NCBI GenBank assembly: GCA_021806605.1 | Contig: JAJZQY010000003.1 | Span: forward strand, 41,412-105,411 | DNA: 64,000 nt | Source of the DNA: Pseudomonadota bacterium | GTDB taxonomy: Bacteria > Pseudomonadota > Gammaproteobacteria > Burkholderiales > JABEVD01 | Reading direction: 5' to 3' | Shown here: in pieces, positions 1,657 to 54,711 of the stretch | Position numbering within the stretch: the stretch's first letter is position 1 | How the letters are laid out: the number at the start of each line of letters is the position of its first letter | Made by a program: the position numbers and the translations under genes | The notes under the pieces: generated by a model | What the model was told of the DNA's origin: nothing | Database searches by the model: none | What the model saw: the letters and a program-made list of their open reading frames with translations, nothing else

Positions 1657-2298
1657 ATGAAGCGTCTGAAATTTGCACTTTTGTTTGCAGCGGCTGCTGC
1701 AGTGAATGCCCATGCGGATCAGGGGCTCGATGAGGCAATCGTGCGGTTGCAGCACGAATGGGCCATAGTCAATTACAAAACGCCCGAAGACAGGCGGGAA
1801 TCGGCTTTCGAAACGCTCGCAGGAATGGCGCAGGATGTTTCGCAGCGTTACCCTCAAAATGCCGAGCCGCTGGTTTGGCAGGCGATCGTGCTGGCCTCCG
1901 AAGCCAAGGTGAAGGGCGGTTTCAGTGCGCTCGGGCTTGCCAAGGATGCGAGGAATCTGCTGCTTGCTGCGGAAAAAATCAATCCCAATGCGTTGGATGG
2001 CTCCATTTACACTACCCTCGGCTCGCTCTATTATAAGGTGCCGGGCTGGCCGATCGGTTTCGGGGACCACAAGAAGGCCAAGGAATACCTGGAAAAGGCC
2101 CTGAAGATGAATCCGGGCGGAATAGATGCCAATTATTTCTACGGGGATCTGATGCTAACCGACGGCAATTACGCTGCCGCGATCAGCTACCTCAAGAAAG
2201 CGCTGGCGGCTCCTCCCAGGCCGGGGCGCGAAGTGGCGGATGCCGGGCGCAGGGCAGAGATTCAGACCGATTTGAAGAAAGCGGAAGAAAGCAGATGA
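1657..2298 (+). CDS. secreted TPR-like repeat protein
   Basis: Signal peptide MKRLKFALLFAAAAAVNAHA, followed by helical TPR-like repeats (AKEYLEKALKMNP, AAISYLKKALAAP). Confidence 0.75.
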   Translation: MKRLKFALLFAAAAAVNAHADQGLDEAIVRLQHEWAIVNYKTPEDRRESAFETLAGMAQDVSQRYPQNAEPLVWQAIVLASEAKVKGGFSALGLAKDARNLLLAAEKINPNALDGSIYTTLGSLYYKVPGWPIGFGDHKKAKEYLEKALKMNPGGIDANYFYGDLMLTDGNYAAAISYLKKALAAPPRPGREVADAGRRAEIQTDLKKAEESR

Positions 2299-18902: not shown

Positions 18903-19002
18903 GGCGGGTCTCCCCGCATTGTACGGTAGCGAACCTGGTCAGGTCCGGAAGGAAGCAGCCACAGCTATTCTATGCAAGTGCCGGGGGTCGGGCTCGCCAC
19001 CC
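18903..19002 (+). ncRNA. ffs: signal recognition particle RNA (4.5S, small type)
   Basis: Contains the invariant domain IV core CCUGGUCAGGUCCGGAAGGAAGCAGCC. The 5' GGCGGGUC and 3' GGGCUCGCC ends can pair. Ends are approximate to within a few nt. Confidence 0.85.
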
Positions 19003-37427: not shown

Positions 37428-37504
<77 letters not shown>

Positions 37505-48421: not shown

Positions 48422-48504
48422 GATTTTCCTCGAGGGTCGTCGGAAGATTATAGCGCTCCCGGGGGTATGTTAAAATGCCGGCAGCAAAACACCTAAGGAT
48501 GTAC

Positions 48505-52171
<3,667 letters not shown>

Positions 52172-52173
<2 letters not shown>

Positions 52174-52262
52174 AAAGCCCGCGGCAGGCGCGGGCCAAAT
52201 GGAGGAGATACGGTTCGGATGCTACGCCGTCAATCTTACGGCACCATTAAGGCATGCCTTGC
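52172..52262 (-). ncRNA. candidate sibling sRNA, copy A (terminator 52172-52196)
   Basis: Minus strand: a stem-loop with a UAAGAUU loop, a single-stranded CAUCCGAACCGUAUCUCCUCC stretch, then GCCCGCG-CCUGC-CGCGGGC followed by UUUUU. It is about two-thirds identical to copy B by eye, with compensatory stem changes. The 5' end is unknown. Confidence 0.35.
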
Positions 52263-52266
52263 GGGC

Positions 52267-52365
52267 AAAAAAACACCCGCGACCAGCGCGGGTGAAAGGG
52301 GGAGGTACGGTTCGAATGATACAAGGGAAATCTTATACTCCCCTTAAGTGTCCGCATTTTGACCG
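52267..52365 (-). ncRNA. candidate sibling sRNA, copy B (terminator 52267-52294)
   Basis: Minus strand: AAGGG..UAAGAUU..CCCUU stem-loop, CAUUCGAACCGUACCUCCCCC, then CACCCGCG-CUGGU-CGCGGGUG followed by UUUUUUU. The 5' end and promoter are not identified. Confidence 0.4.
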
Positions 52366-52407
52366 GCTTGTGCGTATGACTCATAATGTCCAGTTTTCCG
52401 GCAAGGA

Positions 52408-54168
52408 TTGGGATTGACGCAAAAAACGATAGACAGCCTGACGCTGTACCGGCGACTGATGCGCTATGTCCTGCCGCACTGGAAGGCTTTCCTGATTTCG
52501 GTGGTCAGCATCGTCGTGGTCGCCGCGACAGAACCCGCCCTGCCCGCCATGATGAAGCCGATGCTCGACGGCGGATTCGTGGACAAGGACAAGACCCTCA
52601 TTCATCTCATTCCCGTCCTGATCGTTCTGCTTTTCCTGGTGAGAGGGGTGGCGAATTTCACCGGCGCCTACGCCATCAACTGGGTCGGGAACAAGCTGGT
52701 GATGGATCTCAGGGTGGACATGTTCGGCAAGCTGATCAGGCTGCCCACCGCCTATTTCGACGACCATGTCAGCGGCAACCTGATCTCGAAGCTGACCTTC
52801 GACGTCACCCAGGTGACGCTCGCGGCGACCAATGTCGTGCTGATTTCGGTGAAGGATACGCTGACCATAGCCGGACTGCTCGGCTGGCTGTTCTACCTCA
52901 ACTGGATGCTCACCCTGCTGTCTCTGGTCATGGCCCCGCTCATCGCTTTCGTGATCAGGACGCTCAGCAGGCGGCTGAGGCAGTCGAGCCGCGATACCCA
53001 GCGCGCCATGGGCGAGATCACGCAGGTCCTCGAAGAGGGAATAGAGTGCAATCCCGTGGTCAAGCTCTACGGCGGACAGGAATACGAAGCCAGGCGCTTT
53101 TTCGAGAGCGCCAACCGGGTGAGGCGGTACAACATGAAGCAGTCGGCTGCTTCGGCGGCAAACGTGCCCATCGTTCAGATGATCGCAGCCGTATCCCTTG
53201 CCGTGATCGTCTATCTCGCCATTCTCCAGTCGACTGCCGACAAGACCACCGTCGGCGGGTTCGTGTCGTTCATCATGGCGATGCTGATGCTGACCGCCCC
53301 CATGAAGCGCATCACCGGCATGAGCGAACACCTGCAGAAGGGCCTTGCGGCAGCCGAAAGCATATTCGGACTGATCGACGAGGAAGCCGAGCCTGACACC
53401 GGCAAGACCGTTCTTGAAAGTGTCAGAGGGGAGCTGGTGTTCGACGAGGTGAGCTTTTCCTACGGGGGGGAAACCAGGCTGGCGCTGGATCATTTCAGCC
53501 TGACCGTTTCTCCGGGCGAGACGCTTGCCCTCGTGGGCTCGTCGGGGAGCGGGAAGAGCACCCTTGCCAACCTGGTTCCGCGCTTCTATCATCCCACCGG
53601 GGGCAGGATTCTGCTGGACGGGCACGATATCCGCGATCTTTCGCTGGAAAGCCTGCGCGACAACATCGCCTTCGTGAGCCAGAACGTGGTGCTGTTCAAC
53701 GACACGGTCGCGGCCAACATCGCCTACGGCAAGATGGGCGGAGCGAGCCGGGAGGAAATCGAGGCGGCGGCAAGGGCGGCCCATGCGCTGGATTTCATCG
53801 CGGAAATGCCGCAAAAAATGGATACCCTGATCGGCGAGAACGGCGTGAAGTTGTCAGGCGGCCAGCGCCAGCGGCTCGGCATCGCGCGCGCGTTGCTCAA
53901 GGATGCGCCTGTCCTGATCCTGGACGAGGCGACGTCCGCGCTCGATTCGGAGTCGGAAAAGCATGTCCAGGCTGCGCTGGAGACCTTGATGCAGGGCCGC
54001 ACCACGATAGTCATCGCTCACCGGCTTTCGACCATAGAAAATGCCGACAGGATCGTGGTGATGCAGAAGGGCAAAATCGTGGAGGTCGGCAGGCACGCAG
54101 AACTGCTCGAAATGGACGGCATCTATGCCAGGCTCTACCGGATACAATACGAATCCCCGAGGGGGTGA
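52408..54168 (+). CDS. msbA: lipid A export ABC transporter MsbA
   Basis: Six-TM ABC exporter domain plus an NBD (GSSGSGKST, LSGGQRQR, LILDEATSALD). TTG start at 52408 or 52414. Confidence 0.93.
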   Translation: MGLTQKTIDSLTLYRRLMRYVLPHWKAFLISVVSIVVVAATEPALPAMMKPMLDGGFVDKDKTLIHLIPVLIVLLFLVRGVANFTGAYAINWVGNKLVMDLRVDMFGKLIRLPTAYFDDHVSGNLISKLTFDVTQVTLAATNVVLISVKDTLTIAGLLGWLFYLNWMLTLLSLVMAPLIAFVIRTLSRRLRQSSRDTQRAMGEITQVLEEGIECNPVVKLYGGQEYEARRFFESANRVRRYNMKQSAASAANVPIVQMIAAVSLAVIVYLAILQSTADKTTVGGFVSFIMAMLMLTAPMKRITGMSEHLQKGLAAAESIFGLIDEEAEPDTGKTVLESVRGELVFDEVSFSYGGETRLALDHFSLTVSPGETLALVGSSGSGKSTLANLVPRFYHPTGGRILLDGHDIRDLSLESLRDNIAFVSQNVVLFNDTVAANIAYGKMGGASREEIEAAARAAHALDFIAEMPQKMDTLIGENGVKLSGGQRQRLGIARALLKDAPVLILDEATSALDSESEKHVQAALETLMQGRTTIVIAHRLSTIENADRIVVMQKGKIVEVGRHAELLEMDGIYARLYRIQYESPRG

Positions 54169-54171
54169 CAG

Positions 54172-54711
54172 ATGAAGCTGCTTGAGAGGCTTTTCGAGGC
54201 GGCGCTGTGGCGCAGCCGCCATGTCGTGATCTTTGCCGTGGTGGCGAGCATGGCCGCGGGTTTTGCCATGTTCTACATGGCGACCGTGGACGTCGTCTAT
54301 CTCGTCGCGCATATCGTCCACTATGCCGACCCGGACATGACCGTGGCTGCGAGGAAGGCATTGCACGAGGACACCATCACCCACATCGTCGAAGTGGTGG
54401 ACGGCTATCTCCTCGCCACCGTGATGCTGATTTTCTCGCTGGGGCTCTACGAGCTTTTCATCAGCGACATCGACGAGGCGAAGGGAGAGGCGCGATCGAG
54501 CCGGATACTCGTGATCGAGAGCCTGGACGACTTGAAGGCGAGGCTCGCCAAGGTGATCCTGATGATTCTGATCGTGACGCTCTTCAAGGAGGCGATCAAG
54601 GTCGAAATCGGGACGCCCCTCGATCTGCTCTACCTGGGCGGCGCCATCGCGCTGGTGGGGCTCGCCCTCTATTTTTCGCATGCGTCCGAATCCCCGAAGG
54701 GGGAGCACTGA
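54172..54711 (+). CDS. yqhA: YqhA family (UPF0114) membrane protein
   Basis: MKLLERLFEAALWRSRH...VVDGYLLATVMLIFSLGLYELFIS. Starts 3 nt after msbA. Confidence 0.85.
   Translation: MKLLERLFEAALWRSRHVVIFAVVASMAAGFAMFYMATVDVVYLVAHIVHYADPDMTVAARKALHEDTITHIVEVVDGYLLATVMLIFSLGLYELFISDIDEAKGEARSSRILVIESLDDLKARLAKVILMILIVTLFKEAIKVEIGTPLDLLYLGGAIALVGLALYFSHASESPKGEH

Follow-up and report, generated by a model that had tools for sequence, protein, structure and literature searches.

Sibling small RNAs (sRNAs) that carry sequences directed against the Shine-Dalgarno (SD) element of messengers are already established in Betaproteobacteria. The element described here, a tandem repeat between metH and msbA in a genome of the Burkholderiales (contig JAJZQY010000003.1), is therefore a modest advance and not a new principle. 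All positions refer to the window, the whole stretch of 64,000 nucleotides that was analysed. The closest described RNAs belong to the kind represented by Rfam family RF02278 (Betaproteobacteria toxic sRNA). In Burkholderia cenocepacia, ncS03, ncS05, ncS27 and ncS62 are termed 'double-hairpin RNAs'; their 5' ends were mapped by differential RNA sequencing (dRNA-seq), and their CU-rich regions cover ribosome-binding sites (PMC5688073). Both ncS03 (GUCUCCUCCAUGUCUCCUCUGAUAUGGAUUCAGCCCGCC...UUUU, beginning with G) and ncS05 start with GUCUCCUCC, and the seed stands at the very 5' end (PMC5688073 supplement). Overexpression of NcS27 slows growth, and silencing of its CU-rich 5' end does the reverse (PMC5688073). 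In B. pertussis, compensatory mutations showed that S17S represses BP2158 by SD occlusion through its 5'-terminal Site 1 (PMC11722255). Growth inhibition on over-expression in E. coli or Burkholderia has been described for the RF02278 kind (PMC5688073, PMC11722255). Longer forms also exist among these RNAs, namely ncS27 with 92 nt and S17L with about 190 nt, and these are processed. A second comparison is offered by NmsRA and NmsRB (RcoF1/2, NgncR_162/163; RF02877), betaproteobacterial tandem siblings which are about 70% identical, lie in one intergenic region (dsbB-lrp), and each possess their own promoter and terminator. sRNA genes that are duplicated, keep their seed, and have a regulator site in each promoter are likewise known from PrrF1/PrrF2, OmrA/OmrB, and Qrr, which are much longer RNAs with a structured body and are governed by Fur, OmpR, and LuxO/sigma-54. 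These last RNAs differ from the present units in having no sequence or Rfam similarity to them.

At the metH-msbA locus, each of two units of about 82 bp is rather probably a self-contained minus-strand gene for an anti-SD sRNA of 40-45 nt, composed of an inverted repeat (CTTAA-N8-TAAG), a -10 box (TAnnnT), a C/U-rich seed, and a terminator. The cassette would represent a minimal tandem variant of the betaproteobacterial theme, new as it occurs here and with solid support from the comparison of sequences. The metH gene (48475-52173, plus strand) ends with the stop codon 52171-52173, and the open reading frame (ORF) of an MsbA-like ABC exporter begins on the same strand at 52408 or at TTG 52414. 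The latter start is more likely because the closest MsbA homologs have 584 amino acids. An earlier note on this DNA had described two head-to-tail copies of one architecture in the spacer of about 234 nt, with a period of about 93 nt. Both copies are present, and the period measured is 97-98 nt. Unit A, on the metH side, occupies 52172-52251 and unit B, on the msbA side, 52267-52348; both are complete cassettes on the minus strand. They were recognised as two pairs of direct repeats, 52198-52251 / 52295-52348 (70% identical) and 52169-52202 / 52267-52300 (74% identical), and by alignment with the units of relatives, which is gapless for unit B against 19 others. Global alignment of the minus strands of A and B (80 and 82 nt) gave 58 identities (72%) and a score of 31, compared to -11.4 +/- 4.6 and a maximum of 8 for shuffled sequences (z about 9). 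No array was reported by Tandem Repeats Finder at the divergence of A and B. Elsewhere in the 64-kb window there is no further copy of the unit or of the inverted repeat, the only CTTAA-N8-TAAG sites being those of the two units.

For the evolutionary comparison, 20 distinct units from about 10 genomes were assembled from contigs of MsbA homologs and from a DNA-pattern scan of metagenomes. The MsbA homologs form a tight clade (81-98% identity) of metagenome-assembled genomes labelled as uncultured 'Burkholderiales bacterium'; Gallionellaceae come next, with about 70%. All tight-clade contigs fetched show the order metH-spacer-msbA-UPF0114-glycosyltransferase, and a unit was found in every one of their metH-msbA spacers. 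Copy number is one in L102 and L103, two in L081-L085, L104, and L105, and three in L086, with no change in the flanking genes. The single unit of L102 lies at 1363-1444 and the array of L086 at 2671-2934, both on the minus strand; in L086 the unit nearest msbA has the degenerate seed GUUCCCCC. Of 15 stretches recovered from JGI/ENA metagenomes by the combination of seed and terminator, 4 (L087, L092, L094, and L096) are real, each with both units at the metH-msbA locus. The remaining stretches are one look-alike (L097) and GC-rich chance matches.

Beyond the tight clade, the synteny is lost in Ferrigenium and in another relative (about 70% MsbA identity), and neither contains a unit. The MetH and MsbA proteins of the window are both absent from an exact-match index. 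When a genome collection was scanned by the C-terminus of MetH, none of the 80 loci listed had the motif or a match to R1, a covariance model built from the predicted RNA; the best listed match was 73% identical. In the window, R1 finds only the two copies, B with 74.4 bits and A with 64.2 bits, and the next match has 10 bits. R1 has no match in 17 other betaproteobacterial or gammaproteobacterial metH loci, and a blastn search of a plasmid collection gave none. The element is real and under selection and, as far as seen, is confined to one locus and to one uncultured lineage near Gallionellaceae and Nitrosomonadaceae.

The look-alike in L097 (Ga0310344_10106934; 2098-2151, plus strand) comes from an unrelated genome with a lower GC content, where GUACCUCCUCC and then a terminator stand in an intergenic region. 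R1 gives it 34.7 bits and RF02278 27.7 bits, and the CTTAA..TAAG / TAnnnT geometry is absent. An analogous anti-SD sRNA with a single hairpin is one possibility, the plain terminator of a gene another.

The strand of the units is indicated by their terminators. As the earlier note had recognised, both copies end in intrinsic terminators on the minus strand, each a GC-rich hairpin directly followed by a U-tract. In unit B, CACCCGCG-CTGGT-CGCGGGTG (stem from 52294 to 52274, minus strand) is followed by T7, and in unit A, GGCCCGCG-CCTGC-CGCGGGCT (stem from 52196 to 52176, minus strand) is followed by T4-A-T3. On the plus strand there is an A-run 5' of each hairpin and a U-tract 3' of neither. The terminator is kept in all units, and in 20 of 20 its U-tract is conserved on the minus strand and not on the plus strand. 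We strongly infer that the units are transcribed from the minus strand as independent genes. It is improbable that they act at the level of the DNA or of the plus strand without any trans-acting RNA, the metH-msbA spacer then containing modules for protein binding, termination, or insulation, such as hairpins stabilising the 3' end of metH, GGAGG sequences in a metH-msbA read-through transcript, or msbA operators. Such a role would agree with the strict synteny of the locus, with the lack of a U-tract terminator of metH itself, past whose stop the unit A hairpin begins after 4 nt, and with the position of the inverted repeat of unit B, a short way upstream of the msbA promoter. This promoter, a sigma-70-like TTGACC-17-CATAAT found by promoter scan at 52359-52387 (plus strand) and with its CATAAT kept in relatives, lies outside the repeats, however, back to back with unit B and divergent from it. 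Moreover, unit A has an inverted repeat with no adjoining plus-strand gene, and copy number varies from 1 to 3 while the flanking genes stay unchanged. Modules of this kind would have no use for a TAnnnT at fixed distance from a CU-rich tract in every copy, and the minus-strand bias of the U-tracts speaks against them as well.

The 20 units align nearly gap-free, and the information profile of the alignment is sharply bounded: conservation is absent in the 20 nt 5' of CTTAA, sets in abruptly at C1, and ends past the T-run. The first conserved block comprises columns 1-5 (CTTAA), G7, and columns 14-17 (TAAG), which together form a 17-bp inverted repeat with the invariant positions C1 T2 T3 A4 A5 G7 T14 A15 A16 G17. 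In unit B it reads CTTAAGGGGAGTATAAG (52332-52348, minus strand) and would lie at about -40 to -24 as a candidate regulator site; in unit A it reads CTTAATGGTGCCGTAAG (52235-52251, minus strand). The second block begins 10 bp past the inverted repeat and consists of T28, A29, A32, and T33, of which T28, A29, and T33 are invariant. The third, columns 41-51, is GTAYCTCCYCC, followed by a T-rich linker of 5-8 nt, then CCCGCG-N5-CGCGGG and the T-run. No constraint is seen at columns 8-12, 18-27, and 34-40. The third block belongs to a stretch common to A and B, CAUYCGAACCGUAYCUCCYCC, which had been pointed out before, and the view that its C/U-rich anti-SD tract is the functional core is supported by conservation at the syntenic locus in about 10 genomes. 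The seed of the A lineage, GUAUCUCCUCC, is nearly invariant across genomes while its flanks vary, the exception being unit A of L086 (GUACCUCCUCC); that of the B lineage, GUACCUCCCCC, is fixed while neighbouring columns change.

The second block resembles a -10 box. At columns 28-33, all 20 units have TAnnnT, and any other offset reaches 9 of 20 at most; T28, A29, and T33 are the counterparts of -12, -11, and -7, the best-conserved positions of sigma-70 -10 boxes. The predicted boxes, drawn from column conservation, are TATCAT in unit B (52316-52321, minus strand) and TAGCAT in unit A (52219-52224, minus strand). The conserved G of GUAYCUCC follows TAnnnT at 7 nt in 17 units and at 6 nt in 2, a spacing that is normal between a -10 box and a start. 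That copy A starts directly after the terminator of copy B had been seen in the window, and the arrangement is even tighter in some relatives: in L104, CTTAA abuts the preceding U-tract (0 nt); L084, L086, and L105 have a gap of 3 nt, and the others one of 13-17 nt. Since the gap varies from 0 to 17 nt, there is no promoter at a fixed distance upstream of CTTAA. The promoter is most likely inside the unit, and the transcript is probably about 40-45 nt, because TAnnnT is invariant and because some relatives leave no room upstream. Columns 1-33 are thus most likely promoter DNA. The likely start is the G at column 41, that is 52308 in unit B and 52211 in unit A, as judged from the -10 spacing and from ncS03 and ncS05, whose transcription start sites (TSS) are mapped. 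The inverted repeat probably takes the place of a -35 hexamer as the putative site of a dimeric regulator. Earlier, convincing -35 and -10 boxes had both been reported missing; this is correct for the former, and a predicted form of the latter lies within the unit itself.

The same columns bear on a plus-strand alternative, in which two mini-ORFs (MLRRQSYGTIKAC... and MIQGKSYTPLKC...), each read from a GGAGG plus ATG, would encode small proteins. This is hardly credible. Both copies in the window do have an ATG 11-13 nt after GGAGG, but that ATG is the reverse complement of -10-box columns 31-33, and a start codon is present in only 10 of 20 units, the others having ATA, ATC, or AGT. The spacing from SD to ATG is long, the two ORFs differ in frame and length, and ORF A runs through unit B. 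The mini-ORFs were rightly set aside when first noticed: GGAGG and ATG are there in the window, and they are not conserved.

The predicted products are simple. sRNA B has 42 nt (GUACCUCCCCCUUUCACCCGCGCUGGUCGCGGGUGUUUUUUU; 52267-52308, minus strand), with the seed at 52298-52308, the terminator stem at 52274-52294, and U7 at 52267-52273; it is predicted from terminator, R1 match, and fold, and its 5' end from the spacing given above. sRNA A has 40-44 nt (GUAUCUCCUCCAUUUGGCCCGCGCCUGCCGCGGGCUUUUU(AUUU); 52168-52211, minus strand), with the seed at 52201-52211, the terminator stem at 52176-52196, and a U-tract that overlaps the metH stop; to the same kinds of evidence it adds a partial match to RF02278. 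Both predicted RNAs fold into an unpaired 5' tail of 14-15 nt followed by the terminator hairpin.

This anatomy differs from that first proposed, a three-part RNA of about 93 nt with a 5' stem-loop whose stems change in a compensatory manner around a conserved loop. The 5' arm of that stem occupies columns 10-14 in A and columns 4-8 in B, so that the two copies have different helices. In a set of 15 units, pairing holds in only 53-55% of cells whichever register is taken. RNAalifold retains no conserved helix in columns 1-58, and the sole conserved helix is the terminator, with AU<->GC covariation at the outer pairs and 95% of cells paired. The expectation that the repeat would recur in relatives was borne out in every close relative recovered; the covariation expected with it is confined to the terminator helix and does not extend to the 5' stem. 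The proposal of a minus-strand sibling sRNA pair therefore keeps its strand, its two sibling units, and their tandem layout, which the relatives support, and loses its conserved 5' stem-loop. The earlier note was essentially right in what it observed, apart from the period and the 'compensatory' stem, and right in kind but wrong in anatomy in what it concluded.

Among the alternatives, a longer transcript is the likeliest. Each unit could yield a minus-strand sRNA of 80-95 nt that starts at or before CTTAA. In such an RNA, CTTAA...TAAG and the variable region would make up a 5' domain, perhaps a hairpin closed by CUUA/UAAG or a helix that sequesters the seed, and the CU tract would be internal. 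In agreement with this, a stem of 5 bp can be drawn around UAAGAUU in each unit of the window, the invariant CUUA and UAAG are complementary to each other, and longer processed forms occur among the known relatives. In addition, a longer RNA from unit B folds better than its shuffles (z = -2.5), with GGGGAG paired to the seed. The corresponding RNA from unit A, on the other hand, folds no better than its shuffles (z = -0.5), and neither register of the stem is conserved among the units. There is also no conserved promoter-like sequence 5' of CTTAA, where the distance to the prior U-tract shrinks to nothing in one relative, and the invariance of T28, A29, and T33 fits a -10 box and has no explanation at the RNA level. 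The longer form is thus considered unlikely, and the short transcript with an internal promoter is preferred.

Compared to RF02278, the predicted short RNAs show both likeness and difference. In a permissive Rfam scan of the spacer, the best matches at both copies were to this family on the minus strand, with 29.5 bits (52169-52210) and 22.5 bits (52267-52307), below the gathering threshold of 50. They align the 5' UGUCUCCU and the terminator of the model and skip its first hairpin of 21 nt, which is replaced by 2-3 nt. In a larger search, the units of relatives gave no match to RF02278 at E <= 1. The predicted RNAs align to ncS03 and ncS05 as seed, AUU-type linker, and (G/A)CCCG terminator with hairpin 1 deleted; their design agrees in the same way with ncS62, and this alignment to RNAs with mapped start sites lends independent support to the predicted start. 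Common to both groups are occurrence in Betaproteobacteria, a very small size (predicted for the units), a G plus UCUCCUCC anti-SD seed, the AUU-type linker, a GCCCG... terminator as the last, Rho-independent hairpin, and several sibling copies per genome; three of the Burkholderia copies share an upstream DNA motif. The seed (G)UCUCCUCC is present and conserved here, as the GUAUCUCCUCC and GUACCUCCCCC of the two lineages, and its 5'-terminal position is deduced from the -10 spacing. What the units lack is hairpin 1, which bears a second CU-rich loop; in the alignment 17-20 columns are empty there, and between seed and terminator there are only 5-8 nt. Furthermore, the present units are tandem at one locus rather than dispersed, their predicted length is 40-45 nt as against 57-67 nt, and their promoter region is different and lineage-specific.

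The NmsRs resemble the units in their tandem arrangement within one intergenic region and in their UC-rich anti-SD regions, which in the NmsRs repress the translation of metabolic genes. Separate terminators are seen in the present units and separate promoters are predicted, and the GC-rich discriminator between -10 box and start site of NmsRA is counted as a further likeness. Unlike the units, with one conserved helix and a single CU-rich tract, the NmsRs possess three stem-loops and two anti-SD regions (one between SL1 and SL2, the other in the SL2 loop); they also have recognisable sigma-70 -35 boxes and another location. The match to RF02877 amounts to 18 bits (E = 7.5) against a gathering threshold of 52. 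The units are accordingly members of neither RF02278 nor RF02877, and the proposal that they work by analogy with these families is retained. The earlier note could not assign the pair to a known family; the nearest kind can be named as RF02278. On the plus strand, a match to Hrs1 (25.6-27.8 bits, against 56.4) was rejected as merely a hairpin after an A-run.

Taken together, these features suggest the following mechanism. A dimeric regulator would bind the inverted repeat, with the -10 box TAnnnT ten bp further on, and transcription would run from the G of GUAYCUCCYCC, 6-7 nt past the -10 box, to the intrinsic terminator. The start at this G, from a regulator-dependent promoter with no -35 hexamer, is what we infer from the column pattern. 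The product would begin with an unpaired, C/U-rich seed similar to the anti-SD end of 16S rRNA; a short linker rich in U would come next, and a GC-rich hairpin plus U-tail would close it. A U-rich stretch 5' of a terminator, together with the U-tail, is the usual Hfq-binding module, and the linker and terminator of these RNAs would form such a module, so that Hfq may assist. By analogy with the known systems, the seed would pair with GGAGG-type ribosome-binding sites, extended by (A/G)UAC, and initiation on the target messengers would be blocked. The siblings differ slightly in their seeds, UAUCUCCUCC and UACCUCCCCC, each fixed in its own lineage, and duplication or loss of the whole cassette would have given the 1-3 copies.

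Besides the fold of the longer unit B RNA, several observations weigh against this account. No TTGACA-like -35 hexamer is recognisable (columns 4-11 are A-K-G-G/A-N-N), and the promoter scan returned no minus-strand site in the units, the promoter being called from conservation. We know of no regulator whose site the inverted repeat matches; to our knowledge, its spacing or sequence is unlike sigma-32, sigma-54, and sigma-28 promoters, MerR-type promoters with long spacers, and the sites of Fur, FNR/CRP, LexA, and MetR. A length of 40-45 nt is unusually short for a base-pairing sRNA. The similarity to RF02278 is short and of low information, such that convergence is inseparable from homology. 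Target searches gave no signal within the window, and 64 kb is too little sequence for such a search: the complement of the seed with at most 2 mismatches had 53 matches where 49 were expected, and with RNAduplex the best of about 47 crude gene starts reached -21.7, as against values down to -23.3 for shuffled seeds.

If the short form is true, few base-pairing sRNAs with transcription of their own would be smaller than these. Seed and terminator would then be enough for this class, the 'toxic/double-hairpin' design could exist as a single-hairpin form, and that form would be missed by covariance models built on double-hairpin members. The cassette, with its own predicted promoter, a putative operator, and a copy number of 1-3, would also illustrate clearly how sibling sRNAs can arise when an entire mini-gene is duplicated. 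From its invariant inverted repeat, a regulator is to be expected in this uncultured lineage. A further feature concerns metH, whose stop codon falls within the U-tract that belongs to the terminator of the convergent predicted sRNA A. With no terminator of metH itself, RNA reading through from this gene would therefore be perfectly antisense to both sRNAs. A speculative and rather doubtful extension follows: the locus could be a minimal riboregulator, in which operator, -10 box, 11-nt seed, and terminator yield a single-hairpin sRNA of about 40 nt, combined with metH read-through as a built-in sponge that titrates both sRNAs and couples the level of a global anti-SD regulator to the expression of B12-dependent methionine synthase.

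Around the locus, the genes 3' of msbA (54172-57000 in the window; also L081-L086) encode a UPF0114 protein, a family-2 glycosyltransferase, an acetyltransferase, an EamA-like protein, and a methyltransferase. This gene string is not beside msbA in Ferrigenium and is kept within the clade. Over the window as a whole, the only Rfam matches at gathering level are a signal recognition particle (SRP) RNA (18903-19001, plus strand, 78 bits) and a tRNA gene (37431-37504, minus strand).

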